From NCBI GenBank assembly GCA_000004985.1, contig GG738926.1: a stretch of 64,000 bases of DNA. The stretch is one strand, 5' to 3'. Within the stretch, counting starts at the first letter, position 1. Each line of letters starts with the position of its first letter. The notes under the pieces are model-generated. The model searched no databases. It saw only the letters and a program-made list of their open reading frames with translations, and was not told where the DNA came from. Positions 7,914-53,639 of the stretch are shown here, piece by piece. The translations under genes were made by a program, and so were the position numbers. The stretch is from Naegleria gruberi (lineage: Eukaryota).

Positions 7914-10900
7914 ATGAAACTATTAAACTTGTTTATTTTTCTAATATTATTTCCCACACTAATTTATTCATCATCCGCAGAGGATACGAGAAATTATTCC
8001 AGCTCATCCATTAATAATTCGAATAATTTTCCTTCATCCTCTTTGAAAACTAATGTTGTTAACTATTCGAAAGGAATTAATTTACAAATAATTTATTACA
8101 TTAATTCTGATGATGTCAAATATCAGAATACAACTTGTCAAGACGAAAGTCATCCATGTTCAGATATGAACCAAGTGATCTTGGCAGCAAATACGAAACT
8201 ATTCGAAATATTTCATGAAAATGATCAAACTAAATTAGATTCTTTTACAATGATTGTCATGATTGATTCGAAATTGGAATGTAACAAACTGCTCTTTGAT
8301 TTTTCAAATTATACGAAACGATTCGAAATGAGGTGGAAAGGATACGAAAATGGTTTATTCTCTGCTTGTCTAAATAGTTTAGATGAAAATTCCATTTTAG
8401 ATGCTTTCACTGTTGAGAATGGAAAGATTTCAGGCGAATTGAATAATAGATTAGGTATCAAGAATTTGGAAATTCGAAACTGTCACGATGGTGGAATGAT
8501 TTACTTTTATACTAAAATAGAAAATTTGCTGATTGCTGACAGTTTCTTTCATGAAGATACTGAAATAACTGAGATTACAAATGTACGAGTGGAAAATACG
8601 CAATTGGATGATTTTGAAATTGTTTCGAATGGAGCAAGTGTTGAAATTTCAAATTCTAAAATTCAAGGAATTGTTGATTTGCAGAATTTTAAATCATTTT
8701 CTATTCGAAACTCAATTTGGAAAAATAACCGAGTTCATGAGGATTATTCATCAACATTTAATTTAGGACAAGATGTTTCATTTGATAATGTAACAACTAA
8801 TGCTAAAATTGTGTTTATTTCAATCAAGTCAATCAAGATGAATGGGCTAATTGTACACAATTATGGAAACGGATATTTCTTGTATCAAATGATACGAGTT
8901 TCTCATTTCTATCTAAGCAACAGTTCGTTTGTGGGAAATTTCGTGCTCAACAACTATTTACTCTCCTTGCAAATAGTTGAATCTATACAAATTGAAAATT
9001 GTACAGTTTCTAATAATGTTGGAGGTTTCATCATGGTAACAGATGCTACTTTGATAATGGGACAGGTGAATATACGAATTAGTAAGAGTGTATTTCAATC
9101 CAACGAGATGCTGTCAGATATTGCTCTAATTGACATTGTGGATCAAACAAGAGAGATGTATTTTATCACAGTTGACCATTGTAAATTTTTGGAAAATACA
9201 GGAGAATCCACTTTACACATTGATGGAGGACTTGCCCAAATTTCCAATTCAGACTTCTACTTTAATATTGCAAACGAACATGGTACTGCATACTTGAATT
9301 GCTATGTTACAATTTCAAACTCTAAATTCATCGCTAATCAAGCCAAGTTAGGAGGAGCCATTTACATTGGTCCTGCTGGAAATATTGATGCATCTCAAAC
9401 AATTGATTTTACTTGTGATAATAATTGGGCAACCTACGCTGGAGGATGCATTTATTCAGAAAATTTGGATTTTTCAAAATTGAAACGCATGAATGGAACT
9501 AATATTGCTAAATATTATGGAAATGATGTGGCCACACCTATTGTGAGTCTGGATGCTACATTTGATGAGGTAGATTCTAATGGAAATATTGAGGTTTACC
9601 CAGGTCAAGCATTCCAAATTAATTTTTTCCCAAGAGACAAGTTCAATCAGAGCACCTCTTATTTATTGAATCAATATTTGTTTATCAATTCAGAAAAAGG
9701 TCATTTTACAATCTCTCAGAATTTTTTAGATGGAATCCATTCTATTCCAGTAGTTTTGCAAATATTTCCAATTGACGACTACAACCCATCATTGCCACCA
9801 CTTGTAATATTGATTTCTTCAAAAATTGAAATCAAAATTCCTGTAAATATTCTCCCATGTCCAGATAGTTCTTTCCTGAAATTATCTCAAAATGGACATT
9901 ACTGTGAACAAATTCCATTAGCAGCGATTCTGTCATCTGTAATTTTGGGAATTATTTTGATAACCATTATATTGGCAGCATTAATAGTGATAGCTAGGAA
10001 ATTATTGAAATTGAGAAAACAGGAACGTGCTGAAAAGAAAATGGAGCTATTGTTCAAAGATAAGGAATTTATATTCGAAACAGAACAAGCACCTCTATTA
10101 CTTTCTAATACCATCAACAGTAGTGATTCAGGTGAAAGTAGATCAATAATTGGAAACAGGCAACAATACATCATTCCAATTTCTGAAATTAATATTTTGA
10201 AAAGAATAGGAGAAGGTGGAATGGGTGTCGTATATCACGCGAAGTGGAATCGAACTGATGTTGCCATCAAACAATTGAAAACAGATTCCAATGATGAAGA
10301 ATTCGAAAATGAAGCAATTTTAATGAGCTCACTTCGACATCCATGTATTGTGAGCTGTTTTGGAGTTTCTCTGACAACCAATGGAAAATATATGATTGTA
10401 GAATATTTGGAAAATGGAAGTCTAGAAAAGGCAATTTATAATTCAAAGATGGGAAGAGCAATTTTGAGATTTGAAACCAAGTTGAAAATATTAACTGATG
10501 TTGCCAAAGGATTAGTTTATTTACATTCAATCAAACCTCATAGAATTATTCATAGGTATGTTTACTACTTTTATTGGAATAGATATTAATTATGGAATAG
10601 AGATTTGAAACCAGGAAATTTATTACTCGATAAGAATATGAATGCAAAAGTTGGGGATTTTGGATTGAGCAAAATTGTTTCGAATAATTCTGCAACAATG
10701 ACAGCAAATGTAGGAACTTTACTTTACATGGTAAGTCTAGATAATTTCACAAATTGAATTAAATTGTTATCAATTTAGGCGCCAGTAAGTAATTTCGAAA
10801 TTTAATTTATTAAAATTTCGAATATTTTACAATAGGAATTACTTTCGAATGATCACAAAGGTCAAAGTACAAAAGTGGACGTTTATTCATTTGGAATTAT

Positions 10901-11243
10901 TATGTGGGAAATTTTATTCGAAGAATCACCATTTTCAAATGAAATTGATGGTTTCACTAATGTTTTCCAAATATTGAAGAAAGTTACAAAAGGTCATCGA
11001 CCACCCTTACTATTCGAAACTAGTGCTTTATTGGAGGCAGATAGAAATCAGAAAGTTGATGAATGGATTGATCATAACTTTACAAAGAAACAAATCGAAA
11101 CTATTGGAAAGGAAAATATTTCTAAATTATATGAATCATATATAGAAATTATGGAACACTGTTGGAATCATGACGCATCTAAAAGACCTGAATTTATTGA
11201 AATTACAGATCAATTAGAAACCTTGCAATCGAACTTTGCTTAA
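7914..11243 (+). CDS. Receptor-like protein kinase: signal peptide, β-helix-like (pectin-lyase-fold-like) ectodomain, one TM helix, TKL-type kinase. Four exons
   Basis: Exons: 7914..10555, 10601..10730, 10779..10784 (6-nt microexon GCGCCA = Ala-Pro), 10836..11243. Introns: GTATGT..AATAG (45 nt), GTAAGT..TTTAG (48 nt), GTAAGT..AATAG (51 nt). Signal peptide [24 protein letters not shown] helix [26 protein letters not shown] (~9918..9990). Kinase motifs [19 protein letters not shown]|DLKPGN (split by intron 1), DFGLSK, YM-AP-ELL, DVYSFG. Confidence 0.75.
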
Positions 11244-13795: not shown

Positions 13796-16700
13796 ATGAA
13801 ACCAAACACCAATGTGGATCATTATCAAAAAAAGGACCACATCAAGTCAATCACAACAAGAATGAAGAAAGTTTGTTTATCCAAGTCAACTTCATCCTCT
13901 ACCTCTGCCAAACTCAATTTTGCTATTCAAAAGCATAAGAAGAATGGTAATTCATCTTCAATCTTTAACAGATCTACTCCAATTTCCTTCTCCAACACTG
14001 ACTATATTCAACAATTATATCGTCAATATGGAACCACAAGAATCTCCTTGAAGGAATTTGAAAAGTTGCTTGTGGCCAACAGAGGTGAAATTGCCACGAG
14101 AATTTTACGTTCTGCCCACGAAATTGGTTGCAGAACTGTTTCGATTTATGCAAAACAAGATGCTTCCTCTGTGCATCGTTACAAAGCAGATGGTAAGTTG
14201 TTTTATTTGAATATGTTATTATAATAATTGATCGTATTTTGTAATAATATTTGATGAAATAATTGTAAAAATTCCGATCAATAGAAAGTTACTTGATCGG
14301 AAAGGACAAGGAATTAGGTCCAGTTGAAGCTTACTTGAGCATTGATGAGATTATTAAAATTGCCAAGGAGAATGGAGTTGATGCCATTCACCCTGGTTAT
14401 GGATTTCTTTCAGAGAGAGCTGATTTTGCACGTGCTTGTTCTGAAAATGGTATTCAATTCATTGGTCCAGTAAGTATTTCATGTGATTGCAATAATATAT
14501 TTAACAAATTGTTGGTAGACTGCTGATGTTGTTGAATCTTTTGGTGACAAGACAAGAGCTAGAAAGGTTGCTACTGATATTGGAATTCCTGTTGTTCCTG
14601 GAACTCCAACTGTAAGTATTCTATACTTCTTTAATCCTTAATCGATTGTAAATTATTCAAATAACTTATGTTCATTCCTATTTATAATGAACTTGTCCAA
14701 TTGACCAAAATATTAAGGCAGTAACAAGTATTGCAGAAGCCAAAACCTTCTGCTCCCAAATTTCCTTCCCAGTCATTTTGAAAGCTGCCATGGGAGGTGG
14801 TGGAAGAGGTATGAGAGTTGTTTCCAAAATGGAAGATTTAGAAGAAGCATTCCAAAGAGCTTCCTCTGAAGCTTTGAATGCTTTTGGTTCTTCAGCAATT
14901 TTCATTGAAAAGTTTGTTGAAAAGCCACGTCACATTGAGGTTCAAATCTTGGCCGATAAGTTTGGAAATGTTGTTCACTTGTACGAAAGAGATTGTTCAG
15001 TGCAAAGAAGACATCAAAAAGTTGTTGAAATTGCTCCAGCTCCACATTTGAATCCTCAAGTGAGAGAAAAGATTTTGGCTGATGCTGTTCGTCTTGCTCG
15101 CCACGTCAAGTATCAAAATGCAGGAACATTTGAGTTTTTAGTCGATTCTAATGGAAAGGATTATTACTTTATTGAAGTCAATCCACGTCTTCAAGTCGAA
15201 CACACTGTTACTGAAGAAATTACAGGTGTTGACATTGTCCGTTCTCAAATCTTAATTGCCGAAGGAAAGAGTTTGGACGAAATTGGTTTAAAACAAGAAA
15301 GCATTTCAGTCAGAGGTTCTGCCATTCAATGTAGAGTTACCACTGAAGATCCATTGAATGGATTCCAACCAGATACTGGTGTATTGGAAGCTTTCAGAAC
15401 TGGTGAAGGTATGGGTATTCGTTTGGATATTGGTTCTGGTTATGTTGGATCAAAGGTTTGTTTTTTTAACACTTTACAAAATATTTAATTCTTCTCGTTC
15501 TTTCACATCAATAGATTACACCATTCTATGATTCGCTCCTTGTCAAGGTCATTGGTAAAGGTCTCACTCATGAAGAAGCTTCCAACAAATTGAGACGTGC
15601 CTTGGCTGAATTCAGAATTCGTGGTGTCAAACACAATATTCCATTCTTGCAAAAGGTCTTATCTCATGAAAAGTTCTTAAATGGTTATGTTGACACCTCA
15701 TTCATTGATACTAACCCAGAACTCTTCCAATTCTCATCCAGTGGTAACAGAGCTCAAAAGCTCTTATCATTCTTGGCTGAAAATGTTGTCAATGGACCAA
15801 CTACATTACTCGTCACTGATTTGGAACCATCCAAGAAGAATCCAACTGTTCCAAAGACACCTACTGGTGCTCCTCCACGTGGCTGGAAACAAGTTCTCGA
15901 TGAACAAGGTCCTGAAGCATTTGCAAAGGCCATTCGTGATAGAAGTGAATTGCTCATTACTGACACAACCATGAGAGATGCTCACCAAAGTTTATTGGCA
16001 ACTCGTGTCAGAACCAGAGATTTAATGTCTATTGCTCCATATACTGCTCACGCCATGTCAGATTGTCTTTCATTGGAAATGGGAGGTGGTGCAACCTTTG
16101 ATGTTTGTTTGAACTTTTTGAGAGAATGTCCATTCGAAAGATTGGCTAAGTTGAGAGAAGCCATTCCTAACATTCCATTCCAAATGTTATTCAGAGGTGC
16201 AAATGCTGTTGGTTACACTGCTTATCCAGATAATGTTGTTTACAAATATTGTAAGAAAACAGTTGAACATGGTATGGACATTTTCAGAATCTTTGACTCA
16301 TTGAACTATGTTCCAAATATGGAGTTGGGTATTGATGCTGTTGGTAGCGCTGGTGGCGTTATTGAAGCAGCCATTAGTTATACAGGAGATGTCAGTGATC
16401 CTAAAAAGTCCAAGTATAATTTGGAATATTATTTGAAAGTTGCCAGATCACTTGTTGAAAAGGGAGTTCACATTTTGTGTATCAAAGACATGGCTGGTTT
16501 GTTGAGACCTAGTGCAGCAACCTTATTGATTGGTGCTTTGAGAAAGGAATTCCCACACATTCCAATTCATCTTCACACTCACGATACTGCAGGAACTGGT
16601 GTTGCTACTTTATTGGCAGCTGCTGAAGCTGGTGCTGATATTGTTGACGCTGCTATTGATAGCATGTCAGGATTGACTAGTCAACCTAGTTTGGGAGCTA

Positions 16701-17871
16701 TTGTTGCTTCATTGAAGAACACTCCATTGGATACTAAATTGGATTTGGGTAAACTCTCCAAAGTTTCTGATTATTGGGAACAAGCCAGAGGATTGTATGC
16801 TCCATTCGAATGTACTACTACTTTGCGTTCTGGTTCTAGTGATGTTTATGTCCATGAAATTCCAGGAGGTCAATATACCAATTTGAATGCTCAAGTTTAT
16901 TCCATCAATGGTTCACTTGGTAAGTTTAATTTTTTTACTTTCTAATAGCTAATTATTGTTTTTTTAAATATGAATATAATTTCAGATGGATTCCCTAAGG
17001 TTAAGGAATCATATGAAATTGCCAATAGATTATTGGGAGATATCATCAAGGTCACACCAAGTAGTAAGGTTGTCGGTGATTTGGCTCAATTCATGGTTCA
17101 AAACAACTTGGCTGAAAAGGATGTTATTGAAAAGGCCGATCAATTGTCATTCCCTAACTCTGTTCTCGAATATTTTGAAGTAAATTGGGTATTCCATATG
17201 GTGGTTTCCCAGAACCTTTGAGAACCAAGGTTATGAGAGGAAAACCATCCATTGAAGGAAGACCAGGTGCTAGCATGCCAGATTTTGACTTTGTCAAGTT
17301 GAAGGACAAGTTGAAGAAGGATTTGGATTATGATGCCTCTGAAGAAGATTTGATTTCTTCATCTCTCTTCCCAAAGGTATTTGAGGAATATGTTCAATTC
17401 AAACAACAATATGGTGAGGTCACTAATTTGGGAACTCGTCAATACTTTAAGGGAATTAAAGTTGGTGAAGAAACTGAAGTTGAATTAGAAAAGGGTAAAG
17501 TCTTACATATCAAATTGAAGGCCATTGGAGAAGTTGGAAGTGATGGTAAGAGAGAAGTTTTCTTTGAAGTAAATGGTCAATCACGTCTTGTTTTGGTTCA
17601 AGATAAGAAACTCTCCAAGACTATTCAAATCAGATCAAAGGCCAATAAGAAGGATCCAAATGAAATTGGAGCACCAATGCCAGGTAAAGTTATTGACATT
17701 AAAGTCAAGGAAGGTGATAAGGTCAAGAAGGGAGATACTTTATTGGTCCAAAGTGCCATGAAGATGGAAACTCAAGTCAAGTGTAACTTTGATGGTATTA
17801 TCAAATCACTTGGTGTTAAGGTTGGTGATGAAGTTCAAGGTGGAGATTTGTTATGTATTGTTTCTCAATAA
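13796..17871 (+). CDS. PC: Pyruvate carboxylase (biotin carboxylase + carboxyltransferase + biotinyl/lipoyl domains); six exons with an apparent 1-bp frameshift in the last one
   Basis: Exons: 13796..14192, 14285..14469, 14519..14611, 14718..15455, 15515..16919, 16986..17871. All introns are GTAAGT/GTTTGT…AG, 49–106 nt. Collinear with established pyruvate carboxylases. Motifs: [85 protein letters not shown] (carboxyltransferase), [18 protein letters not shown] (biotinyl-Lys). The N-terminus is a basic/Ser-rich presequence-like region. Expected GAA GGT AAA TTG reads GAA G-TA AAT TGG around 17180, which is one G short. Confidence 0.9.
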
Positions 17872-21595: not shown

Positions 21596-21657
21596 ACAAG
21601 TGAATTTTCTTGTGCAAAACTCTGGTAATAAAATCTTTGGATGGCTCGCCACGTTTA

Positions 21658-21728
21658 CCGTCTCGGGAGGAATCGAACCTCCGTCAATGGATTCAAAGTC
21701 CACTATGCTACCATTACACCACGAGACG
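21658..21728 (-). tRNA. tRNA-Gln (anticodon UUG)
   Basis: The reverse complement folds as a cloverleaf: CGTCTCG / TG / GTGT-AATGGTA-GCAT / A / GTGGA-CTTTGAA-TCCAT / TGAC / GGAGG-TTCGATT-CCTCC / CGAGACG / G. Anticodon loop CTTTGAA gives TTG. T-loop is TTCGATT. Architecture matches a canonical eukaryotic tRNA-Gln(UUG). ORF 21555..21743 overlapping it is spurious. Confidence 0.8.
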
Positions 21729-22429
21729 AGCACATTAATTTGAGAACCTTAATGGATATTGAGGAATCAAAACAAAGTTTTCGTTGAATTCAACAACACA
21801 CACATTGATGAGGGATTGACAGCTTTATCGGATATGATGTGGATGGAATGTTGGTTGTACTTTTCCGGTAGAAGGAATTAATTATTCTTGAAGGATATTG
21901 TTAATACGGTGGTTGTCGCTTCTTGTTGAACGTAACTGGAGTGTTTAAATAATGTTGTTTTTCAAAAGATGAATCACACTCATCCACTAATTATTGTTTT
22001 GTTACCATCATCATTAAAATTCATCTCGATGCATTAACGATATTTTTTAAAATATTAAAAAAATCTTCACAATACGTCCACATATTTATTATTAATATCA
22101 TCTTTGTTGTATCATCATGTAACAGATCTACAGAAAAATTAAGGAAGAGGGATTAGAATTTTGAGAGATTCGCTATGGGTCAATCATCATGAACAGAATC
22201 TTTTGGCTCATTCGGATTTCCAACATCAAGCATCATAGCTTTGCCTCAATAACAATGAAGAAAAGAGAGTACAAAAAAAGAAGTTTAAAGGTCCTTATGC
22301 CGCCTAATACCTCCGACTAACTAGGAAAATTAGAAAATACTAGATTAACTCTTCAAGCAACCTGGAACAATCAATCAAACAACCTAACAAAAAAAAAGAT
22401 AATCACAGTTGACCTGCTCATCATCTAGA

Positions 22430-25400
22430 ATGCGAACAATTTTTGTGATATGCATTGCTGTTGTGGCATGGTTTATTCTTCTCTTTCTAACAAGTGAAAT
22501 CCACTGTCAAACTGTCAAGTATTCATTCACTGTTTATCAGAAGGATTTGTCAGGGCCATATTGTGCAGCAAAATCTCCAAATAGTGATGCTGTATACATG
22601 TCTGAATATAGTGGACATCGTGTGAAGAAGAAATCCTATCTAGGTCTTGTTGTTATTGCAGGAACAGGATATGAGGGTTTTAATGGTGACATTTTGGCCA
22701 AACAGGCCAAACTGGATAATCCTGGAGGTGTTCTAGAATATAACAATGAGCTGTATATTATGGACTATGGAAATAATAGAGTGAGAAAGATTAACAGTGA
22801 AGGTGTTCTGGTAACAATTGCTGGAACTGGTACACGATCTTCAGCAGGTGACAGTAAGTTTTATTTCACACAATTGAATAGACATTCTTTCTTCTTGGCA
22901 TCATAATCTCACACATTAAAGATGGTGCAGCTACTTCAGCATCTCTCAATGGACCTTGGGGTATTCATATACCAAGCAATGGAGATATATACATTACAGA
23001 ATATGTCGGAAATAAGATAAGAAAGATTAGTGCATCTGATAATAAGATTTACCTGGGTAAGTGTTTTCAAAGATTATTGTTTATTCATTCCGAAATAATT
23101 AGTGGCTGGAACAGGATCATATGATTTTTCTGGAGATGGTGGCAATGCTGTTAGTGCAAAATTGAAGAGCCCTTGGAGTGTCTTTGTAAATGCAATTGGT
23201 GAAATATTTATTGCTGATACGGATAATGACAGAATTAGAAAAATTGCAACAAATGGAATTATAACAACTATTGCTGGCTCTGGATCGAGTACTAGTGATG
23301 GAGTTCTAGCAACTACAGCTTCTTTGAAAAAACCAACCTCTGTCTTTATTTCACCAGCAAATGAACTATTCATTGCAGGTATGTGTTTTCACAATTTCAT
23401 TAATGAATTTTAACATGTCTATTAGAGGCTGATGGTGGTAGAATCAGAAAGGTCGATCTGTCAACAATGAAAATTTACACAGTTACTAGTTCACTGAATT
23501 ATCCAACATTTGCATTTGTTGCTGAAAATAGTGATCTATATATTACAGAGAAAAACAACAACCAAATCAGACTTGGAACAGCTTATTGTGATAGTGGTTA
23601 TCAAATTAATTCGAATGGAACTATTTGTAATCCAGTGTGTAATTCACAAATTGGAAGAGCTGGATGCAGTAATCATGGATCATGTACTAGTCCTAATACT
23701 TGTACATGTGATACTGGTTATACATTATCTGACTGTTCTCAACCTATTTGTTATGGAAAATATGGAAGTACTGCTTGTAGTGGAGCAAATCAAGGAACTT
23801 GCTCTGCTCCAGATACTTGTCAATGTAAGAATGGATTTTCTGGAAGTGATTGTAGTGTTTATTATTGTGGAGGGGTTGTTGCAAGCTCAGCAGGTGTCTG
23901 TTCAGGTAAAGGAACATGCTCTGCTCCAGAAACTTGTTCTTGCCAAACAGATTACGTTGGATCAGTATGTCAATATCCTGTGTGTAACAGCATTCCTTCA
24001 AATAACCCAAATGTTTGCAGTGGTGGTGGTACATGTACTTCTCCAAATTCATGCCAATGCTTTACAAACTATTCAGGAACTCAATGTCAGTACACTACTT
24101 GTTCTGGAATAGATAGTACCAATTCGAATGTGTGCTCTGGTAGAGGAAGTTGTGCAAAATATAATAATTGCACATGCACAGCCAACTTCTTTGGCTCAAA
24201 TTGTGAGCTCACTCAATGTTATGGAATTATTTCAAATTCAGCTTCCACATGCGCTTCACATGGTAGATGTGATGGCTACAATAAGTGTACATGTGATTCT
24301 AATTATTTTGGATTGGACTGTAGTGTAACAAGTTGTTATGGAGTGTGGAGTAATACTTCTAGTGTTTGTACTGCACCAAACAGAGGTACTTGCAATTCCT
24401 ACAATAATTGTACCTGTACAAACTCGTATTATGGAACTCAATGTCAAGATTATGATTGCTTTGGAATTAACAAATCTAATAGCTCAGTATGTTCTGGTAA
24501 AGGAGCATGTTCTGCACCAAATACTTGTTTGTGCTCTGATTCTAATTACTCTGGTTCTAATTGTGATGCAGCTGTGTGTTATGGAATTTCAGCAAATGAC
24601 TCTAGAGTTTGTTCTGGATCAAGAGGTGCCTGTAACTCTCCAAACACTTGCTCATGTTTTTCAAATTATTTTGGACCTCAATGTCAATATACACAATGTT
24701 ATGGTATTGACAGTTCCAACACAACTCATGTTTGTTCTGGTAGAGGTACTTGTTCTGATTTCAATAAGTGTGTTTGTAAAGATGGATACTATGGATCCAA
24801 TTGTCAACTCAGCAAGTGTTTTGGAGTTTTATCAAATAGCTCAAATGTTTGCTCAGGTCACGGAACTTGTTCGGATACAGATACTTGTAATTGTGATTCT
24901 AATTATTCAGGTAAAAATTGTGATATTACATCATGTTATGGAACCTCAAGTACAAATCCACTGGCATGTTCATCTCATGGCTTTTGCTCGTCCTATAATA
25001 ATTGCACCTGTTCATCAAACTATTACAGCCAACAATGTCAAGAGTTCAATTGTTTTGGTGTGAATAAGGCATCTACAAGTGTATGTTCTGGTCATGGTAC
25101 TTGTTCAGATATTGATACATGCTCCTGTACAGGAAACTGGATTGGAGGAAATTGTAATCTCACAACCTGTAATGGTGTTTGGAATTATAATTCATCTGTT
25201 TGTTCTGGAAACGGTGTTTGCTCATCTCTGAATAATTGTACATGTAATGTAGGATATTATGGTGCTAATTGTGATTCCTTTGATTGTTTTGGATCTGTAT
25301 TTACAAACGAAGGTATTTGTGCAAACAATGGTTCTTGTACAGGTCCTGGTGTTTGTTCCTGTATTGATGGATATTCTGGATCTCGCTGCCAATATCCTAT

Positions 25401-28400
25401 TTGTTATGGCATTAGTGGTGGTAGCTCAAGTGTCTGTTCTGGAAATGGACAATGTATTGATAGGAATATATGTTCGTGCAGTGCTGGATGGACTGAAAAC
25501 ACTTGTAATGTGACAACATGTTCTGGTAAAAGAAGTGATAATTCATTAGTTTGCAGCTCTCAAGGTTCATGTGTGGGACCAGATAATTGTTATTGTAACA
25601 AAGGTTACACTGGACCTAATTGTGAATTTAATGTCTGTTATGGAAAGAGTCAGAATGATTCTTCAGTTTGTTTAGGCAGAGGTAAATGTTTGAAACCAGG
25701 CGAATGTACTTGTAATACTGGATTTAGAGGTACAGAATGTCAATATTATCAAATTGATTTTGATGAGAAATTGGCCACTCTCAAGCCAACCCTAACTTCA
25801 GTTCTACAATATTCATACCTTTTCAATGGAACATGTGAAACCTTATTCGAAAGTAGTGATTTACCAATAATTGGTGAATCTCCAATATGTTTATGGGATA
25901 GTAGCAAGATGATTATTTATTTAGGTTTTGGAACTCATCTTCAAACTGGCAATTTACTAAGAGTGAAGAATAGCAACTTAGCATTCTTTGTTGATACAAG
26001 CAACTCTCTTTCCTATACTGGATCTGGTATTACGCTCAAGAAATTGATGACAAATGTTCCAACAAGTAATCCTTTACCTCTTAGACCTATTGTTGATAGC
26101 AATTTCCAATCCTACACCAATTTCTCAAGTTTAGTTTGGTCATGTATTAGTTGTTCTACAAGTTTGAATGATTACTTGAAATCTCAACAACGTGAATATC
26201 TCTACATTCCTCCATCCTACTTGAAATCTCTATCAGCATTATATCTGCAATTAGCAGTCTCAAATTTTGCTTCTAATTCCAAAGTTGCAAGTCTTTCATT
26301 TACGTTTTCTCAATCAGCTGCTCCTAATCTTGATTTAATTACTGACCTGAATAGTGATTCACAAATTTCTTGCACAGGATATGACTGTATTATAGAAACA
26401 GAACCAATTGGTTATGGAAACAATGCAGGATTATTCTTAGGTTCATACCCATCAATCAAATACAATGTCTACCTGTCCAGATTTTTCTACACAGACAGCA
26501 GTGGCATTTTGGGAAGTGGATCTACTACTGGAAGTGTCTTGCTATTGGCCAAACATACACAATCCACAACTTCAAAAGATTTCTTCATTCAATATTCATT
26601 CAATGCCTATGAAAATAAGCTTCCTGTTGTTATTTCAGCAACAAATCCTGTCTTTTCTCCTTCATCTTTCATTAGATTTAAGGCAACAATCTTCAATCCA
26701 ATGGTATTCGTGAAAACCGTTCAAGATACATATTATCTTTGGAAACTCTTCAAATTTGACGAAACAGGAAAAGCTAAACAAATGAGCACTGAAATTTACA
26801 TTGATCTGAATTATGATGAAGTAGTTGTACAGAGAGAATTGGAGGCAGGTACATATTTAGTGAGTCTTAATGCAGTAGCTGCTTATGGATCTACTCTCAT
26901 GAATACTACCTTTACTGTATTGAACACAACAGATAGATTGGCTTCCATCAGTTTTTCTCCTGTGCCAACAATAGTTTCAATTTCAGAAGATTTGACAATT
27001 ACTGCAACAATTAATGGAACCATAACATCATTTGAATGGATTCAAATTTCTGGAAGGATAAAACCATTGTGCTCTTTGCAAAAAGTAACAACACAACCAA
27101 GTGAAAATATTACACAAAGCGAATTGACTATAACCAGAGATTGTCTTTTTGAAGGTGAAATTTATATATTCAAGGTTGTTGCTAACAATTCAAATGGCAT
27201 TTCGTCTTCAGCTGAAATTCAAACTCAAACAGATATCTCACCAAGTATTCATTGTGATTTTTATTCTACATCTGAAGATGGCTCTTTCGTTGCATTGGAC
27301 AGCACCTTGCTAATGACATGTAGAAATGGAGCTAAGGATACTATCAAATCTTACACAGTTGAAATTCATTATAATGGAGAAAGAAAGTTTATTGTTTCCA
27401 ATACTCAAAAGAGAAACCTCTATTTTAGAATGCCTTATCTAATTGAAGGAAGCCAATTGGTTGTCAGAGGTCTCAATTTTTATAATACTGAAGTCATTTA
27501 CAGAAAGAATTTAACATCAACTCTGACTTCTACTGACAAGGTTCAACTCTTTATTGATGGTTATAATAGTATTACAACTAGTGAAACAACAAGTTATTTT
27601 GGAGCTATTAATTCTTTAAATTCTCTCTTGACATTATTTGAATACCAACAATTTGATTCGCTTGAAAATAAGAACTCTCTCCAAACTACTTTGAAATCCA
27701 TGCTCAGCCTAATCTCTAATCTGAGAGCTACTGGTGTCAATGTTGATGACAAACTCACTGCTCTCTTACTTCCTCCAGTGTATAGAATTCACAAATACTT
27801 GGATAGTATTAATGGAACTAGATCAAGTGATGATTGGAGAGTTGATGATCTCCTTTCTTGGACATCTTACTTTACTGAGTCTATTCTCAACACCCTTCAA
27901 TACTATTACTCAACTCAATGGAAATTCCTTATTGATCAAATTCATTTGAATGAATTGGATGAACTTATCGAACTTGGATCGAGTATGAATTCTGAAAAAT
28001 TTGTTCTCGTTCAAGTTCAATATGAATTATTAACAGATAGCTTGAATGGAGTCGCATCTAAGAAATCACAAACACAGCTCTCTAATGGTATCTTGCTAAG
28101 AGAAAAATTGGACTCTGTCGATTCATTGAGAAGTCACATTATTAACTTGTACTATTCCAACACTAATGTTTCGATTCAATTCCCATCTGATGTTGCTGAT
28201 ACTTTAGCTTTTGGAGATACAACCACAGATAATTCACTCAATTCATTTGTTAAAGTTTCCAAGACTACAAACTCAAAGATTATTGGTGTCATGACAAGTG
28301 TCAATATTCAAACTCAAAAATTCAAAGAATTGGAAATCCAAAACCTTACCACCTCCATCAATATTGCATTCACAGGCTCTCAATATCCTTCCTCCAATGT

Positions 28401-29786
28401 AACTTGCAAATATTACAATTCCTCATCTCAAGAATGGCTCACTAATGGTGTTCAAACTTTGATTTCTTCTTCCAATAATTTGGTTACCATTTCTTGCTTG
28501 ACAAATCACCTTACAACATTTGCAGTTTTCAAGAATGATATTATTTACATTCCACCTACAAATTCTACTACTAATGGCGTACAAACTTCTGATCCAGCTC
28601 TTGCAATTGCTCTTGGAATTATTCTTCCACTTTTGGCAATTGCAATAATTATTGTAATAATTATCATTGTTGTGATTCTGGTATTGAGATATAGAAAGAA
28701 GAAACTTTCCTCTGAAGTTTCCAATACTTCAGCCATTGAACTGAGAAATGAAAATAAGAGAGGATTATTCGATACTGACATTTCAGACTTCCCTTCAGAA
28801 GCAAGTGTCTATTTCAAACATTTGAATTCTTCCTCAATGGCTTCAACTGTTTCTTCCACATCTTCTTCTAATGATCCATTCTCTCGTTACAAGGACATGG
28901 TTAAAATTGGAGAAGGTGCTTTTGGTTCAGTCTTTAAAGTTATTGACACTAAAAATAACAATAAGGTGAAAGCCATCAAAGTTATTCGATACAAATCAGT
29001 GGAAGAATTAAACTCCATGATGAAAGAAGGAACTCAATTAATGAACATTAGCCATCCAAACATTCTCAAAGTGAATGATTTCTTTGTGGAAAAGGACAAT
29101 TTACTATGTATTGACATGGATTTCTATCCACAAGGTGATTTGAGTACCTTAATCAACCAACAGGAAGATTGTAAAGAAGTACACATCAAGCAAATTATTT
29201 ATCAAATGTGTCATGCTTTGCATTTCATTCACAATGATTTGAAATTAATTCACAGGTAAGTTTTTTAAGTTTTTTTATGGAATTTCAACAACAAATTCAA
29301 TTCACAGAGATGTCAAACCTTCAAATATTTTCATCAAGGTATTAAACGGAAATGTCATCCATACAGTATTGGCAGACTTTGGTTTAGCAAAGGATAATAA
29401 GAATTCAGCAAGTATGAGCTTTGCTGGTACTCCACTCTGTAAGTATTTTCATAACTGTCAAAATTCATAAACATCAAATAGACATGAGCCCAGAATTGGC
29501 ATTAGGAGGTAAATATTATGCCAACACAGATGAATACTCTCTCGGAGTGACTGTCTATCAATTAATTACCAAAGACACCATGACTGCCATCAGTCACTTG
29601 TACATGTCAAAAGACGCAAAAGAAGTACAAACTCTTACACGAAAACGTTTGAAGGAGAGTGGTGATTATTCTGATAGATTAATCGATATCTGTCTACAAA
29701 TGTTGGAAAAGGATAACTGTGCACGTCCATACGCTCAAGATATTTTGGAAAATTCATACTTTAATGATATTAGAAAGATTAGATAA
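22430..29786 (+). CDS. Large type-I receptor protein kinase, ~2366 aa, six exons: signal peptide, NHL-repeat β-propeller, ~19 tandem tenascin-type EGF repeats, ~900-aa Ser/Thr/Asn-rich ectodomain, GPS (GAIN-type autoproteolysis) motif, TM helix, protein kinase
   Basis: Exons: 22430..22853, 22922..23056, 23103..23378, 23426..29255, 29308..29438, 29482..29786. Phases checked: total 7101 nt = 2367 codons. NHL motifs: LYIMDYGNNRVRKIN, IYITEYVGNKIRKIS, IFIADTDNDRIRKIA, ADGGRIRKVD. EGF units follow C..G….S.VCSG.G.C…..C.C…Y.G..C. GPS motif LVTISCLTNHLTTFAVF at ~28488..28530 (C-x-C-x-HL|T-x-FAV). TM helix AIALGIILPLLAIAIIIVIIIIVVILVL. Kinase motifs IGEGAFGSVFKV, KAIK, IHR|DVKPSNIF (split by intron), DFGLAK, GTPL|YMSPE (split by intron). 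Confidence 0.8.
23590..25745 (+). repeat. In-frame tandem array of ~19 EGF-like (tenascin-type) coding repeats, ~96–102 bp each, inside exon 4 of the receptor gene
   Basis: Periodic cysteine spacing C(T/S/Q)C…(N/G)(Y/F)(Y/F/S)G..C(Q/D/E/N) repeated ~19 times. Other reading frames across this array yield long spurious ORFs (23510..24112, 24338..25063 and others). Confidence 0.7.
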
Positions 29787-30033: not shown

Positions 30034-30273
30034 TTATTGAGAAGCTTGATAAATCTTGAAACCCCACCAGATGGACCAGAACCAACCGATCAAGAAATAG
30101 GCCAAGATGAATTGGAGAATACCAACAATAATAGCTGGTGACTTCTTTTCAGCTTCTTGAGTCAAAACACCGGCAATGACGGTACCCCAACCTGGGAAGA
30201 AGATGTTCAAGATCAAGACGATCAAACCCATGGAGGATTCGACCTTTGGAGTGGAGTTGTTAATCATGTCCAT
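30034..30273 (-). CDS. Small (79 aa) two-helix membrane protein with a Trp-rich C-terminal helix (GWFWSIWWG)
   Basis: ATG at 30273. Hydrophobic segments LIVLILNIFFPGWGTVIAGVL and IIVGILQFILAYFLIGWFWSIWWGF. Family not confidently recognised; Pmp3/UPF0057-like size and topology. Confidence 0.45.
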   Translation of the reverse strand: MDMINNSTPKVESSMGLIVLILNIFFPGWGTVIAGVLTQEAEKKSPAIIVGILQFILAYFLIGWFWSIWWGFKIYQASQ

Positions 30274-34943: not shown

Positions 34944-35016
34944 GCCCGTCTAGCTCAGTCGGTAGAGCGCAAGGCTCTTAACCTTGTGGTCGTGGGTTCG
35001 ACCCCCACGGTGGGCG
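34944..35016 (+). tRNA. tRNA-Lys (anticodon CUU), copy A
   Basis: GCCCGTC-TA-GCTC-AGTCGGTA-GAGC-G-CAAGG-CTCTTAA-CCTTG-TGGTC-GTGGG-TTCGACC-CCCAC-GGTGGGC-G. Canonical eukaryotic tRNA-Lys(CUU) architecture. A T-rich tract follows (attctcttttttctctttttt). Confidence 0.9.
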
Positions 35017-36001: not shown

Positions 36002-36074
36002 GCTGGCGTAGCTCAGTCGGTAGAGCGTTGGTCTAATAAGCCATTGGTCGCCGGTTCGATCCCGTCCGTCAGCA
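36002..36074 (+). tRNA. tRNA-Ile-like (anticodon AAU), with one mismatch each in the anticodon and T stems
   Basis: GCTGGCG-TA-GCTC-AGTCGGTA-GAGC-G-TTGGT-CTAATAA-GCCAT-TGGTC-GCCGG-TTCGATC-CCGTC-CGTCAGC-A. The overall plan and loops match a canonical eukaryotic tRNA-Ile(AAU). Mismatches are 27T·43T and 50C·64T. Confidence 0.6.
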
Positions 36075-36536: not shown

Positions 36537-38825
36537 TTACAGGTCCAACATTTCCATACACTTTTCCTTGATTGGTACAATTCTATGAGCTCTTCTATCT
36601 ATGGTTTCAATCTTTTCGACAATTTCCATACATTTCTTGTATTGTTGATCACTATAACACTCAACTGCATCAGCATACAAATCACAAACATTGATTTCTG
36701 CCTCTGGAGCGTTCTCAGTTTCACAAAGGAGCTCATAAATTACTAATGGCTTGGTCTTACCCTTAACAGTAACTGAATCTAATGGAACACAGAATAATCT
36801 ATTCGAAACTTGAACATAAGTAGCTTGACTGATGGCAAGATAAGTTCCATAATTCTTATTAATTCCTTCAATACGAGAAGCAGAGTTGACATTATCACCC
36901 AATGCTGTATAATTCATTCTTTCAGGAGTACCAACATTTCCAATAAAGGCAGATCCTGTGTGAACTCCAATTCTTGTCTTGAATTCTGGAAGACCCTTCT
37001 TTTCCCATACTCTATATAGATCTTTCAATTCTTTTTGAATTCTGAGTGCTGAATTACATGCTTTGTAAGCATGATCTTCAATTGCGAATGGAGCATTCCA
37101 GAATGCCATGATAGCATCACCTAATTTCAATGTCAGTTATCAATGAATAATTGAAACTTACCAATAAATTTATCGACTGTACCTCCAGATTCAATAATGT
37201 GATGGGTTGCTCTTTCTAGATATTCAGAAAGACATTGAACAAGAGTATTAGGATCCATCTTTTCACAAATTGTTGTAAAGTTTTCAATATCTGAGAAGAG
37301 CAAGGTCACATTCAATTCTTGCACTCCAAGACATGCTTCCTTTGAACTTTCTAATAAAGCTTTTACAAGAGAGCTAGGAACATATTTGTTAAATGAACGA
37401 AGACCAAATTTCATCTTGTCAACAGCTAATTGAATTTCTTTGACTTCTGTCAAGAAACTTCTACGTTGTTTTTTTGAAGAAATTTCCAATCTAGCAATCT
37501 TGTTAATATCCTTACTAAGGGATGATAATGGAAAGGTAATCAACAAGGAGAACACAAAGACAACTGCAGCACCGAATATCATAATTCCCAAACTGATCAA
37601 CAAACCATTTCTGAATTGAATCCAAATGTCTCCCAACACGTCAATTTGTGGAGAGAAGATTACAATAATCCAATCCATTCCATTAATTGAGGATGAGTAA
37701 CTGTATGGAATGGCATTAACGTCAACATCATAACCGTTCCATTGAATACTAGTAGAAGCAGTTCCATTCAATTTCTTCAAATCATACAAACTTAATAATT
37801 TCTGGTAACCTTCTTTTACAAAAGTTGTGTTGCCTTCGAGTGGAGTTGTCTGAACTGGAATTCCATTCTTAATAATGTATGAAGGATCAGAAGGAGATGA
37901 AGAACCAATCAATAATCCGTTTCTGTCTATTAACATGGTCACTGCATTCTTTGAAACTGGTGTGCTTTGCATGAAACTTGATAATGACCTGCCGAATGTA
38001 ACAGAAGACCAAGCATAGTGGAATTCTCCATCAACCCAAAAAGGAGTCACATACGAAATGTAAAAATCTGGATCGACCTGATTGTAACCAACATCCGTCC
38101 AACTTTCTTTTGGATTCGAAACATTCATCAATTTCCAATAGGGTGATTGAGTGTTATCAACACCAGGAACGTGTACAATCAAATTAACTTCACCACTTGG
38201 AGTAACCACAAAGAAATCAGCTCCTTCCTTTGACACAAAGAGTCCATTAGCAAAACTGTAAATGTTCTGAACTCCCCATGCATAGTAACCTGTCTTGTCT
38301 CCTACTGAAGTAAATATAGAATCTGGATTCATACCCTTGAAAACATTATACATGTGATTTACAACTAAAGTGGATTGATCTGTTGTGTTGAATAGTTAAA
38401 ACTTAAAAAACAGTGCTCTACTTACTATGCAGATCCCACTTGAATGTCATGAATTGATTCTTATAAATAGTTGACAAATCAACGGCTGGCTTGAATTTAG
38501 TATTAAGGTAGTTTGCAAGATTCTTCGCATAACCTTCCTTTAATTTCGTGTTCATGTCCAACACTGATGTATTACCCGTGTTAAAGCCAATGAACCAGGT
38601 AATAATCAAAACGACGAGAACAACCAACACGAGAACACACACCAGCAACAATCTAATAGAGAATAAAAAGTTGAGGAAGGAATAGATAGACCGAACAATG
38701 AAAGGAGTCTTATCTTCCCCGTAGAATAGCGAATCGACAGAATGTGCCTTGTGGAGAGCATATACATCTGCCTTGGAACTGTTTTGTGGTGTTACCACTG
38801 GTTGAATACTTGGTGATTTGACCAT
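36537..38825 (-). CDS. Receptor-type class III adenylyl/guanylyl cyclase (~736 aa, three exons): short cytosolic N-terminus, TM1, ~300-aa extracellular sensor domain, TM2, HAMP-like linker, cyclase catalytic domain
   Basis: Exons on the minus strand: 38825..38426, 38379..37162, 37129..36537. Introns are GTAAGT..AACAG (46 nt) and GTAAGT..ATTAG (32 nt); phases verified. TM1 LLLVCVLVLVVLVVLII, TM2 LLISLGIMIFGAAVVFVFSLLI. Cyclase motifs VTLLFSDIENFT, KFIG|DAIMAFWNAP (split by the 32-nt intron), RIGVHTGSAFIGNVG, YTALGDNVNSASRIEG. Confidence 0.8.
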
Positions 38826-42076: not shown

Positions 42077-42149
42077 CGCCCACCGTGGGGGTCGAACCCA
42101 CGACCACAAGGTTAAGAGCCTTGCGCTCTACCGACTGAGCTAGACGGGC
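42077..42149 (-). tRNA. tRNA-Lys (anticodon CUU), copy B; identical in sequence to copy A
   Basis: The reverse complement equals the 73-nt copy A sequence. The same ~35-bp upstream element (atttacaaaaagttgatattgttaatgaaatgtag) and a T-rich downstream tract are present. Confidence 0.9.
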
Positions 42150-42508: not shown

Positions 42509-43312
42509 ATGCAAAATAGTCTGATGAAATATTTAATTGTAATCTTGCTATTAACAATAGCTTTCTCAACAAGAAAAGTTGATGCTCTCAACACAGCTGG
42601 CAAAGATGTATCCAAGTGTTCCTATCAGAATACTGTGAAATTGGGAACAACCATGACTCTGTACTGGAATGTCCTGAAGAATCCAAGTGATTCCACCAAC
42701 CACATTCTTGAATTTGGTTTAATATGCGTCAATGCAGGATATTGTGCTATTGGATTTGATCATCCTCTTGACAAGGGAATGAATTCCATTGACACCATGT
42801 TTGCCTACACAATTTCTGGAACTGCCTATTTGAAAGATGCCTATTGTAAGACCAAACATGTGTTTCCAACAATTGATGAATTGAGTGGAGGAACCAATGA
42901 TTATTTGGAAACCAATGGAGGAGTCATTGATGGTCAGTATCATTATAGATGGAGCAGAAAAGTCAATACTGGAGATTCCCAAGATGCCACTTTCAAGAAT
43001 TCAAATGTCTATGTCAGTTGGGCATATCACACCAGTTTAACTTCAATTGGTGCTACTCACTCTGAAGCTGGACAGAACGTTCAGGTTAATTTTCTTGCCA
43101 ACTCACCAACAGAAACTTACCTTTCTGGAATGATTTATAATTCTTCGTCTCCCTATCCTACTGATTCTTCTAATGATTCTGTGGTAATTGGTGTTGGACA
43201 CAGATATCATTTATATGCATTGGCCATTGCGGTCGGTTCAATGATCATTCTTGGCTTGATTTGTACCTACTTGGGTTCCATCCAATGTAGTTACTCACTT
43301 TTTACTTTATAG
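42509..43312 (+). CDS. Secreted/type-I membrane DOMON-like domain protein: signal peptide, DOMON-like β-sandwich, C-terminal TM helix. May form a single gene with the ferric reductase at 43365
   Basis: ATG at 42509. Signal peptide MQNSLMKYLIVILLLTIAFSTRKVDA. DOMON hallmark GYCAIGFDHPLDKGMNSIDTMFAY (compare GWVAxGFS..G.M.GSD.V). C-terminal helix LYALAIAVGSMIILGLICTYLGS. Only 52 nt separate it from the next ORF. Confidence 0.6.
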   Translation: MQNSLMKYLIVILLLTIAFSTRKVDALNTAGKDVSKCSYQNTVKLGTTMTLYWNVLKNPSDSTNHILEFGLICVNAGYCAIGFDHPLDKGMNSIDTMFAYTISGTAYLKDAYCKTKHVFPTIDELSGGTNDYLETNGGVIDGQYHYRWSRKVNTGDSQDATFKNSNVYVSWAYHTSLTSIGATHSEAGQNVQVNFLANSPTETYLSGMIYNSSSPYPTDSSNDSVVIGVGHRYHLYALAIAVGSMIILGLICTYLGSIQCSYSLFTL

Positions 43313-43364
43313 AAAGGTAACCAAGTTAATTCCATATGATTTTCTAGGAGTTTCCTACATTAAC

Positions 43365-44783
43365 ATGTTCCTAGATTTGACAGTTGGCGAAATGATTGTC
43401 ATTTCAGTCTATTGGGCATTGATGGTGATCTGGTTCAGTTATGGAGTTGTAAATCAAGCAGATCCTTTCATTCCAAGAAAGATTTCTTCTGGATATGTAC
43501 AAATGATCATTTTGAATTACATTTTCCTGTTCATTCCTGTAACTAGATATAATGTCTTGCAAGCATTATTCGGTATTTCATTTGAAAGGTCTTTGAAATT
43601 CCACAAGTGGCTTGGTTTTATGATTTTTGGATTTGCTACTGGACATGGTGTGACGGAATTCGTTTCATTCAGAGATAACATACCTTACATGTTCTCTGCA
43701 GAGGATCAATTCCCACTATTTGGAATAATTGCTTGGTTATCTCTTGGATTATTATTGCTCTTCTCTTTCAATCCTATTAGAAGAAAGCTCTATGAATTAT
43801 TCTTAGTTTTCCACATTCCTCTAACTTTGGTCACTGTCACCTTCTCAATCATTCATGGAGAAGGTTGGATTAATTTACTTCCTTATATGGGATTTTCAAT
43901 TATTTTAATGGTAATTGATTGGGCTTTGCGTTTAATTATTGGATTTGGAATTCCAACCAAGTTGACTCAGATATCATACGATGAGGATTCTGAAGTAACA
44001 ACCTGTGTATTTGAAAAAAGATTCTTGACATTCTTCCATGATCCAAACCATGCTCACTATGTTTTCGTCTACATTCCACAAGTTTCCATCTACCAACTTC
44101 ACCCAATGACAATCAGTTCCTCTGTAAAGCTTGAAAATGGAAATCATCAATTCATATGCCATATTAAACGAATGGAAGGAGGTACATGGGCAGCCAAGCT
44201 TGCTCAATTGGCTAAATCTAAGAAAATGGTTTCTGAATACTACGGAGTCAGAGTGGAAGGAGCATATGGCAACTTGTCAATTCCATTCTTTGCAAAGAAG
44301 AATGATCAGAAGAGAACCATTGTATTCATAGTTGCGGGAATTGGAGCAACTCCTTGTAATGCTATTTTGACAGCACTAGAAGATCCAAAATATAACGATC
44401 CAACTCCTTATAAGGTATATGTTAACTTTACAATGAGAAATGAGGCAACTTTGGCCCAAATGAGTAAGATTATGCAACAGAAACCAAATGTTGAATGCTC
44501 ATTCTATGTAACTGGTGTTAAATCTGTGAAAAAATCAATAGAGTTAATGGAGAAGGGTCAGGATAATAGCGAAGACAAGAGATTTGTCAGAGGATCAAGA
44601 CCTAACTATGTGGAATATTTGGAAAAGATCAAATCTCAAATTATTCAATCAAAATCACTTGAATATGTTTCTGTTTTTGCTTGTGGTCCATCTAAAATGA
44701 TGAATGCAGTGCATAATGCTGTGTGGACATGCAGTGATTCATCTTGCCGATTCGAGTTGCACAAAGAAGAATTTGAATTTTAA
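43365..44783 (+). CDS. Ferric-reductase / NADPH-oxidase (FRE/NOX) family transmembrane oxidoreductase
   Basis: Ferric-reductase TM domain with bis-heme His pairs (FHKWLGFMIFGFATGHG … LFLVFHIPLTLVTVTFSIIHG). FAD-binding HPMTISS (HPFT-type). NAD(P)H-binding IVFIVAGIGATP. C-terminal CGPSKMM. ATG at 43365, stop at 44783. Confidence 0.8.
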   Translation: MFLDLTVGEMIVISVYWALMVIWFSYGVVNQADPFIPRKISSGYVQMIILNYIFLFIPVTRYNVLQALFGISFERSLKFHKWLGFMIFGFATGHGVTEFVSFRDNIPYMFSAEDQFPLFGIIAWLSLGLLLLFSFNPIRRKLYELFLVFHIPLTLVTVTFSIIHGEGWINLLPYMGFSIILMVIDWALRLIIGFGIPTKLTQISYDEDSEVTTCVFEKRFLTFFHDPNHAHYVFVYIPQVSIYQLHPMTISSSVKLENGNHQFICHIKRMEGGTWAAKLAQLAKSKKMVSEYYGVRVEGAYGNLSIPFFAKKNDQKRTIVFIVAGIGATPCNAILTALEDPKYNDPTPYKVYVNFTMRNEATLAQMSKIMQQKPNVECSFYVTGVKSVKKSIELMEKGQDNSEDKRFVRGSRPNYVEYLEKIKSQIIQSKSLEYVSVFACGPSKMMNAVHNAVWTCSDSSCRFELHKEEFEF

Positions 44784-44894: not shown

Positions 44895-44967
44895 CGCCCA
44901 CTGTGGGGGTCGAACCCACGACCACAAGGTTAAGAGCCTTGCGCTCTACCGACTGAGCTAGACGGGC
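44895..44967 (-). tRNA. tRNA-Lys (anticodon CUU), copy C; single-base variant in the 3' acceptor strand (C to T on the + strand, giving a 7C·66A mismatch)
   Basis: The reverse complement equals copy A except for one substitution (cactgtggg versus caccgtggg on the + strand). A related upstream element (aaaagttgatattcaatgtgaaaggtag) is present. Confidence 0.8.
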
Positions 44968-53333: not shown

Positions 53334-53639
53334 GTTTTCAACCTTAGGACTGTAAATGTGATTTTGGTTGTAAAATAAAGCACTGAATTTTAATGCAATA
53401 TTTGGAAATCTGAGAACTTTTCAAGTGCAATCTTTCCAAATTTTATTGGAATAACTGTTGTAAAAACCTTATTCATCTCAATCCTCCACAACTCACTGTT
53501 ATCATTTCAAACAATTTATAGAAATGGTTATTGTATTGCAACTAGTACAGATTAGAGTGATGGAAGAAATTTGTAAATTCACTTGATTAACAATATTCCA
53601 GCGAACTTCAAAAAACATAGTCGAGTATATAGCAAAAAA

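Follow-up and report, generated by a model that had tools for sequence, protein, structure and literature searches.

The GAIN (GPCR autoproteolysis-inducing) domain has been studied mainly for its cleavage and the tethered-peptide activation of seven-transmembrane (7TM) adhesion GPCRs (G-protein-coupled receptors), and for its action on polycystin-1. Its fold covers about 320 residues and consists of a helical subdomain A and a β-sandwich subdomain B, whose final two strands flank the cleavage site; the domain cleaves itself at HL|T in the endoplasmic reticulum, and both fragments remain associated. Cleavage requires GAIN and nothing beyond it, and the GAIN domain of GPR56 still cleaves itself when placed on the transmembrane helix of PDGFR (PMC3321182). 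Once the N-terminal fragment has been removed, the last strand lies exposed and acts on the 7TM domain as its tethered agonist (PMC12716839). The sections of a 2026 consortium review on single-pass, polycystin and unicellular contexts treat polycystin-1 as an atypical adhesion GPCR responding to a tethered agonist, cite a natural one-transmembrane isoform of Drosophila Cirl, and show no GAIN-kinase receptor (PMC13197933). GAIN domains are also known in protists beyond adhesion GPCRs and polycystin-1 and predate the adhesion GPCRs (PMC3321182, PMC12716839); outside Holozoa, GAIN and the 7TM domain of adhesion GPCRs are "encoded in other genes" (PMC12716839). The presence of a GAIN domain in a protist is therefore unsurprising in itself. 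Here we describe a gene at positions 22430–29786 of a 64,000-nucleotide stretch of Naegleria gruberi contig GG738926.1 (the window), in which such a domain stands next to a single transmembrane helix and a protein kinase. With a probability of roughly 0.55, we read its product as a type I receptor Ser/Thr kinase with a genuine GAIN domain that would cleave itself, removal of the N-terminal fragment altering the kinase output.

Evidence for the GAIN domain comes from both fold and motif. A PDB sequence search with residues 1640–2036 gave no match, and a comparison of folds was thus required. In the structure predicted for residues 1638–1994 (mean predicted local distance difference test score, pLDDT, 85.4; predicted template-modelling score, pTM, 0.78), the N-terminal half is helical (model residues 2–182) and is followed by a β-sandwich half, and Foldseek against the PDB ranks BAI3 4dlo (E 2.5e-9), BAI2 8oek (3.1e-9) and GPR110 (2e-6) at the top, CD97 (2.8e-5) being sixth behind two axonemal chains. 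H1973-L1974-T1975 lies in the turn joining strand 1964–1971 to the last strand, 1976–1981, which is the canonical cleavage position, and the helical subdomain A, the β-sandwich subdomain B and a site between the last two strands are all found in the model. The GPCR proteolysis site (GPS) model PF01825 matches with 25.9 bits in the full protein (E 1.5e-5) and 27.6 bits in the isolated GAIN segment, the curated cut-off being 22.5, and the Cys/Trp scaffold is followed by H-L-T and a hydrophobic last strand. The original prediction, made from the letters of the DNA alone, had called a GPS here and had looked to structure prediction for a GAIN fold ahead of HL|T; both are found, with the Pfam score over threshold and GAIN domains as the best fold matches. 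Its motif, C-x-C-x-HL|T-x-FAV, was right for HL|T and FAV and wrong for the second C of CxC, as the protein reads C-L-T-N-H-L-T and has two GPS cysteines (C1939, C1969); the juxtamembrane position stands, at 28 residues from T1975 to the transmembrane helix rather than the ~25 given. The parts of the protein lie as follows.

22430–22507, plus strand: signal peptide, residues 1–26, an N-terminal hydrophobic segment
22517–23580, plus strand: six-blade NHL β-propeller, residues ~30–330 (Pfam NHL and TEN_NHL), with six blades of the (Y/F)I(x)D..N.RIRK type legible; the span includes introns 1–3
23584–25740, plus strand: cysteine cap and 18 EGF repeats with a 39-residue period, residues 332–1050 (Pfam EGF_2 in 18 stretches; regular-expression count)
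25744–27501, plus strand: putative β-sandwich stalk of about 590 residues, residues 1052–1637 (AlphaFold2, AF2, model; Foldseek)
27505–28050, plus strand: GAIN subdomain A, helical, residues ~1639–1820 (structure prediction)
28063–28533, plus strand: GAIN subdomain B, β-sandwich including the GPS, residues ~1825–1981 (structure prediction, Foldseek)
28402–28527, plus strand: GPS motif, residues 1938–1979, with C1939, W1949, G1953, C1969, H1973, L1974 and F1977 (Pfam PF01825 above threshold; alignment A1, see below)
28507–28515, plus strand: predicted site of autoproteolysis, H1973-L1974|T1975, placed by the model in the turn that joins its final two strands and conserved in A1
28516–28533, plus strand: last GAIN strand TFAVFK, residues 1976–1981 (model strand 339–344), counterpart of the adhesion GPCR tethered peptide TxFAVLM
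28597–28686, plus strand: single transmembrane helix, residues ~2003–2032, followed by RYRKKK (hydropathy scan)
28786–28815, plus strand: juxtamembrane motif DFPSEASVYF, residues 2066–2075, its P and S invariant in alignment A2; the motif also occurs in the GAIN-less relative P0295
28888–29762, plus strand: Ser/Thr protein kinase domain, residues 2100–2359 (Pkinase 170.3 bits); the span includes introns 4 and 5

Adhesion GPCRs such as ADGRB3/BAI3, ADGRG6, ADGRE5/CD97 and CELSR1 share with this receptor the juxtamembrane GAIN domain, HL|T, the TxFAV last strand and a long adhesive ectodomain including EGF repeats. The receptor differs from them in having one transmembrane helix and a Ser/Thr kinase in place of the class B2 7TM domain, no HormR, one GPS disulfide and a larger helical subdomain; past the GPS there is a single hydrophobic segment, no 7tm Pfam match is found, and Pkinase stands there instead. 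Polycystin-1, PKD1-like proteins and sea-urchin REJ proteins resemble it in carrying a membrane-adjacent GPS/GAIN in a protein that is not a GPCR, and two animal proteins with REJ and GPS (P0021, P0034) were matched through the GPS region. They differ in their REJ, PLAT and 11-transmembrane channel-like parts, none of which is detectable here, the effector being a kinase.

The fusion of GPS and kinase is independent of any splice call, because the GPS, the transmembrane helix and the kinase N-lobe all lie in exon 4, an unbroken 1930-codon open reading frame (ORF) that spans the last NHL blade, the EGF repeats, GPS, helix and kinase as far as the H-R of HRD. The idea that the kinase exons form a separate gene, which had been named as the way in which the original prediction might fall, fails on this fact. 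Its coherent six-exon model of 2366 amino acids was reproduced, the spliced frame having 7101 nucleotides and no internal stop, and so was its division of the kinase motifs by two introns, introns 4 and 5 cutting H-R|D and GTPL|YMSPE. All five introns run GT..AG and start with GTAAGT or GTATGT; their lengths are 68, 46, 47, 52 and 43 nucleotides, none a multiple of three, so that retention of any one would shift the frame. Residues 706–2266 of the N. fowleri homologue (stalk, GAIN, transmembrane helix and entire kinase) are encoded in one exon, and the gap-free 65% kinase identity to this protein confirms both kinase splice junctions as well as the fusion; the joined exon 5/6 sequence GTPLYMSPELALGGKYYANTD corresponds to N. 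fowleri GTPLFMSPELGLGGKYYANTD. An artefact, whether a chance GPS match or the wrongful joining of an adhesion gene to a kinase gene, would suit a GPS score so near the Pfam threshold, but it is effectively refuted by the one stop-free ORF, by a fold search that ranks GAIN domains best, and by the same part order in homologues from three Naegleria species. The gene is built as follows.

22430–29786, plus strand: whole coding region, six exons, 2366 codons and a TAA stop; spliced translation without internal stop
22430–22853, plus strand: exon 1, donor GTAAGT
22922–23056, plus strand: exon 2; the NHL repeat periodicity carries over the junction
23103–23378, plus strand: exon 3, from the splicing model
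23426–29255, plus strand: exon 4, 5830 nucleotides, in which the NHL propeller ends and every EGF repeat, the stalk, GAIN/GPS, the transmembrane helix, the juxtamembrane region and the kinase N-lobe to H-R of HRD are encoded
29308–29438, plus strand: exon 5, the kinase part that opens with D of HRD, includes DFG and closes with G-T-P-L; the junction reads LIHR|DVKPSN
29482–29786, plus strand: exon 6, the kinase part that begins with Y-M-S-P-E, ending at the stop codon

The N. fowleri homologue is intronless at the position of intron 5. Two N. gruberi gene models (P0011 and P0012) show aberrant sequence directly after G-T-P-(I/L)-F-M, and to judge from their sequence it looks as if the annotation had read through an intron near this position.

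Relatives were collected by an exhaustive phmmer search with residues 1052–2038 against 1.84 billion representative proteins, which returned 41 of them, four representative proteins matching over about 970 residues with E values of 1e-44 to 3e-33. Four relatives are collinear over their full length, namely N. fowleri FDP41_013523 (2266 amino acids) and N. gruberi NAEGRDRAFT_70916, _70317 and _49308; they share NHL, EGF, a stalk of ~600 residues, GAIN with HL(T/S), transmembrane helix, the juxtamembrane FPS motif and kinase in the same Pfam order, with 45–65% identity to the receptor in the kinase and about 22–27% in the ectodomain. They differ in their numbers of NHL and EGF repeats, the gene neighbourhood in N. 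fowleri is not shared, and _49308 has a pseudokinase. These comparisons of protein sequences show the gene to belong to an unnamed NHL-EGF-GAIN-kinase family, so far from Naegleria-type amoebae (Heterolobosea). The receptor itself is absent from a collection of 15 billion proteins, its best match there being 28% identical. The same architecture has been public in Naegleria proteomes since the genome releases and has passed unremarked, the four proteins being uncharacterised and named just as predicted proteins or kinases. Orthology to the N. fowleri homologue is not claimed, as the synteny comparison found different neighbouring genes. A word-indexed homologue search with residues 1052–2366 gave distant kinases only, its prefilter having missed the family, and a profile search, which returned mostly kinase-only proteins and missed sequences from its own query alignment, was unusable for the spread of GPS-kinase fusions.

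The family also includes short forms with EGF, GPS, transmembrane helix and kinase (P0019, P0022), and kinase-less proteins with NHL/EGF, GAIN-B, transmembrane helix and a short tail (P0016, P0026, P0029, P0031); one kinase-less protein comes from N. lovaniensis and is named "GAIN-B domain-containing protein" in UniRef. N. fowleri FDP41_002843 (P0295) has NHL, EGF, transmembrane helix and a kinase of the same subfamily and lacks GAIN, so this kinase does not need GAIN. NAEGRDRAFT_49308 (P0053) has the full NHL-EGF-GAIN-transmembrane part with HLS kept, HGN for HRD, and the glycine loop gone; from these residues it is a GAIN-bearing receptor pseudokinase. Beyond Naegleria, the original prediction had asked which lineages carry GPS-kinase fusions, and one more was found: EP01117_P016126 from Protostelium nocturnum (Amoebozoa) has a GPS (41.9 bits), then a transmembrane helix and a cytoplasmic TKL-type kinase (PK_Tyr_Ser-Thr, 201 bits). 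It differs from the Naegleria receptor in its canonical CxC GPS, its short ectodomain without NHL or EGF, and its kinase type, and judged by these sequence features is evidently an independent fusion. A GPS also occurs in matches from Planoprotostelium, Colponema and Trimastix, and in matches from animals, which have REJ domains. The kinase-less relatives show that GAIN is useful without a kinase, which would suit a purely mechanical autoproteolysis like that of mucin SEA modules, the domain being a breakaway joint for detaching or shedding the adhesive ectodomain while the kinase signals independently. We consider this improbable, for the GPS-transmembrane-kinase combination recurs in several Naegleria paralogues and independently in Protostelium, which suggests that the combination is advantageous.

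Alignment A1, of the GPS-proximal regions of 18 relatives, has a mean column identity of 23%. C1939, W1949, G1953, C1969, H1973, L1974 and F1977 are invariant in it, the +1 position is T or S throughout, and 17 of the 18 sequences match the Pfam GPS; almost all of the matches taken together show C-x-(T/S/C)-x-H-L-(T/S)-x-F-x-(V/I/L). Because these residues are invariant despite such low identity, the pattern fits selection on the catalytic motif and not on the fold alone. This tells against the main rival explanation, in which GAIN is real and uncleaved, or cleaved without a signalling role, and acts as a rigid membrane-proximal stalk or binding surface, the kinase being activated by ligand-induced oligomerisation of the NHL/EGF part. 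Invariance of H, L, T/S and F is hard to explain by fold alone, and the cleavage motif sits in the canonical turn of the model. That explanation nevertheless has a real, if lesser, chance of being correct: P0295 combines the same kinase with the same NHL/EGF ectodomain and has no GAIN, the pseudokinase P0053 retains HLS, the catalytic H of the GPS motif is replaced by Q in P0048, an intact HL|T is necessary but insufficient for cleavage, and uncleaved GAIN domains exist, that of BAI3 having been crystallised uncleaved (PMC3321182).

The membrane topology and the kinase agree with the reading as a type I receptor kinase. Hydropathy shows the N-terminal signal peptide and one transmembrane helix and nothing else, in agreement with the single helix already called from the letters, and the helix is followed by the basic RYRKKK on the cytoplasmic side and the C-terminal kinase. 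This kinase, likewise rightly called, has all its catalytic motifs (GEGAFG, KAIK with the AIK lysine, HRDVKPSN, DFG, SPE), and the nearest solved kinases are NEK1 (E 2.4e-26), ULK3, NEK2 and STK24; it is a NEK/STE20-like Ser/Thr kinase, not a tyrosine kinase, and is predicted to be catalytically intact. The juxtamembrane motif, as (D)FPS(D/E)xS(V/M)xF, is kept in all kinase-bearing relatives with or without GAIN (P0050, P0011, P0012, P0019, P0295), and this conserved stretch may be a regulatory or docking site.

For the ectodomain, Pfam reports EGF_2 with 206.6 bits in 18 stretches, EGF_TEN with 166 bits, TEN_NHL with 50 bits and NHL with 38.5 bits. The pattern count gives 18 full six-cysteine units with a 39-residue period plus a short cysteine cap, so that the EGF array of the original prediction stands while its count of ~19 does not. 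The protein has 33 N-glycosylation sequons, every one of them ectodomain-side. Teneurins are of type II, have their EGF repeats before NHL, and carry a YD-repeat shell and a toxin-like C-terminus. The TEN_NHL, EGF_TEN and EGF_Teneurin models match the receptor, so the likeness to teneurins that had been proposed holds at the level of generic NHL and EGF domain families; it fails for domain order and orientation, which are the reverse of those in teneurins, the receptor being type I with a signal peptide and NHL before EGF, and no YD/Rhs or Tox-GHH Pfam match was found. The AF2 model of residues 1052–1650 is all-β with moderate confidence (pLDDT 65, pTM 0.36), resembles generic Ig/FN3-type domain arrays in Foldseek, and Pfam gives sub-threshold, weak PKD hints for the stalk; no REJ or PLAT domain was matched by Pfam at E<=1 or E<=5. 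A polycystin-1-like REJ-GAIN ectodomain was considered and dropped, since REJ is undetected by Pfam and the moderate model matches generic Ig-like arrays, and residues 1052–1637 are treated on this model as a probable β-sandwich stalk rather than a REJ module of the polycystin type. Elsewhere in the window, an ORF at 53583–54707 on the plus strand encodes an NHL propeller (TEN_NHL 101 bits) that shares about 38% identity with the receptor's own propeller.

The self-cleavage that we propose rests on analogy with adhesion GPCRs and polycystin-1. GAIN would cut its own chain during biosynthesis, leaving an adhesive N-terminal fragment of ~1950 residues held non-covalently on a C-terminal fragment of ~390 residues with the last strand, the transmembrane helix and the kinase. 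Ligand or force would then strip off the N-terminal fragment, and the kinase output would change. Since there is no 7TM pocket for a tethered agonist, the most plausible route would be that the freed hydrophobic stub allows clustering of C-terminal fragments and trans-phosphorylation, or exposure to further processing, and the receptor would report adhesion or mechanical load by phosphorylation. That cleavage, a tethered peptide or shedding gates the kinase is put forward as a hypothesis. In favour of the self-cleaving receptor, GAIN can work in the absence of a 7TM domain, as seen in the GPR56 fusion to the PDGFR helix (PMC3321182) and in the one-transmembrane Cirl isoform (PMC13197933). Several points weigh against the self-cleaving receptor kinase. 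The GPS score is only about 3–5 bits over threshold, Pfam found no GAIN-family match besides GPS, the two GPS cysteines permit only one of the two canonical disulfides, the global Foldseek TM-scores are low (about 0.34), and the helical subdomain exceeds the size seen in solved GAIN domains. To these are added the uncleaved BAI3 crystal, the same-subfamily kinase of P0295, and the known tethered-agonist mechanism, which needs a 7TM or 11TM acceptor that this receptor lacks. The stronger form of the proposal, in which autoproteolysis and dissociation of the N-terminal fragment directly switch the kinase, so that the protein would be a mechanosensitive adhesion receptor kinase and "break-and-signal" a portable principle, is offered tentatively and is on balance rather doubtful.

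The surrounding window is AT-rich (GC about 0.28–0.37), with short introns and scattered tRNA genes. The receptor gene is flanked by a tRNA-Gln(TTG) gene at 21657–21729, 700 nucleotides before its start codon, and by a minus-strand ORF at 30034–30273 downstream; together with those at 34944–35016, 36002–36074, 42077–42149 and 44895–44967 there are five tRNA genes in the 64 kb, three of them tRNA-Lys(CTT). A second single-pass receptor kinase gene lies at 7914–11243 on the plus strand, with a signal peptide, a ~650-residue ectodomain without Pfam match, a transmembrane helix and a PK_Tyr_Ser-Thr kinase; an exact-sequence look-up with its kinase ORF gave no record. One of its introns interrupts the kinase precisely where intron 4 of the GAIN-kinase gene does, in codon as well as phase (H-R|D, AG|A), and a second follows G-T-L-L-Y-M and precedes an apparent 6-nucleotide micro-exon, GCGCCA (10780–10785), for the "AP" of APE. 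Pyruvate carboxylase is encoded at 14778–17871 on the plus strand in at least four exons, one of which matches, with 100% identity, a gene on the ENA metagenome contig ERZ929261 k127_29330 (run ERR1078381); the next-best protein has 67%, and no Naegleria sequence is among the 120 matches listed for this exon. At 37133–38353 on the minus strand, the ORF of another sensor-type membrane protein matches dCache_1 weakly and includes a transmembrane helix and the first part of an adenylate/guanylate cyclase catalytic domain. The plus-strand region 42509–44783 encodes a DOMON-domain membrane protein followed immediately by a multi-transmembrane ORF, which its sequence suggests to be ferric-reductase/NADPH-oxidase-like; the two may be a single gene.

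Among receptor kinases, the transmembrane kinases (TMKs) of Entamoeba and the plant receptor kinases are comparable to this receptor in being single-pass with a cytoplasmic Ser/Thr kinase. To our knowledge, no GAIN or GPS module has been reported in either of these families. Both form lineage-specific expansions (PMC10463195, PMC2880585). Term look-ups in the former source, which surveys transmembrane kinases across kingdoms, gave no mention of GPS, GAIN or Naegleria (PMC10463195), and those in a systems paper on N. fowleri gave none of GPS, NHL or EGF; for that paper, the factors behind Naegleria adhesion "remain mysterious" (PMC8296547). A receptor kinase coupled to GAIN/GPS was not found described in the literature, coverage of which was incomplete, so that priority may lie elsewhere.

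We classify the GAIN module with a kinase as effector as the new element of this gene. A natural GAIN-transmembrane-kinase receptor detaches the module from both its 7TM and its polycystin acceptors, and its phosphorylation output is easy to measure; signalling by loss of an N-terminal fragment without a tethered-agonist pocket therefore becomes directly testable. GAIN has been joined to kinases in at least two supergroups, which bears on the history of the domain. If direct switching of the kinase were true, "break-and-signal" would be older than 7TM and 11TM acceptors and independent of them, and the heterolobosean and amoebozoan fusions would be convergent. For the biology of Naegleria, the family provides candidate adhesion or mechanosensing receptors.

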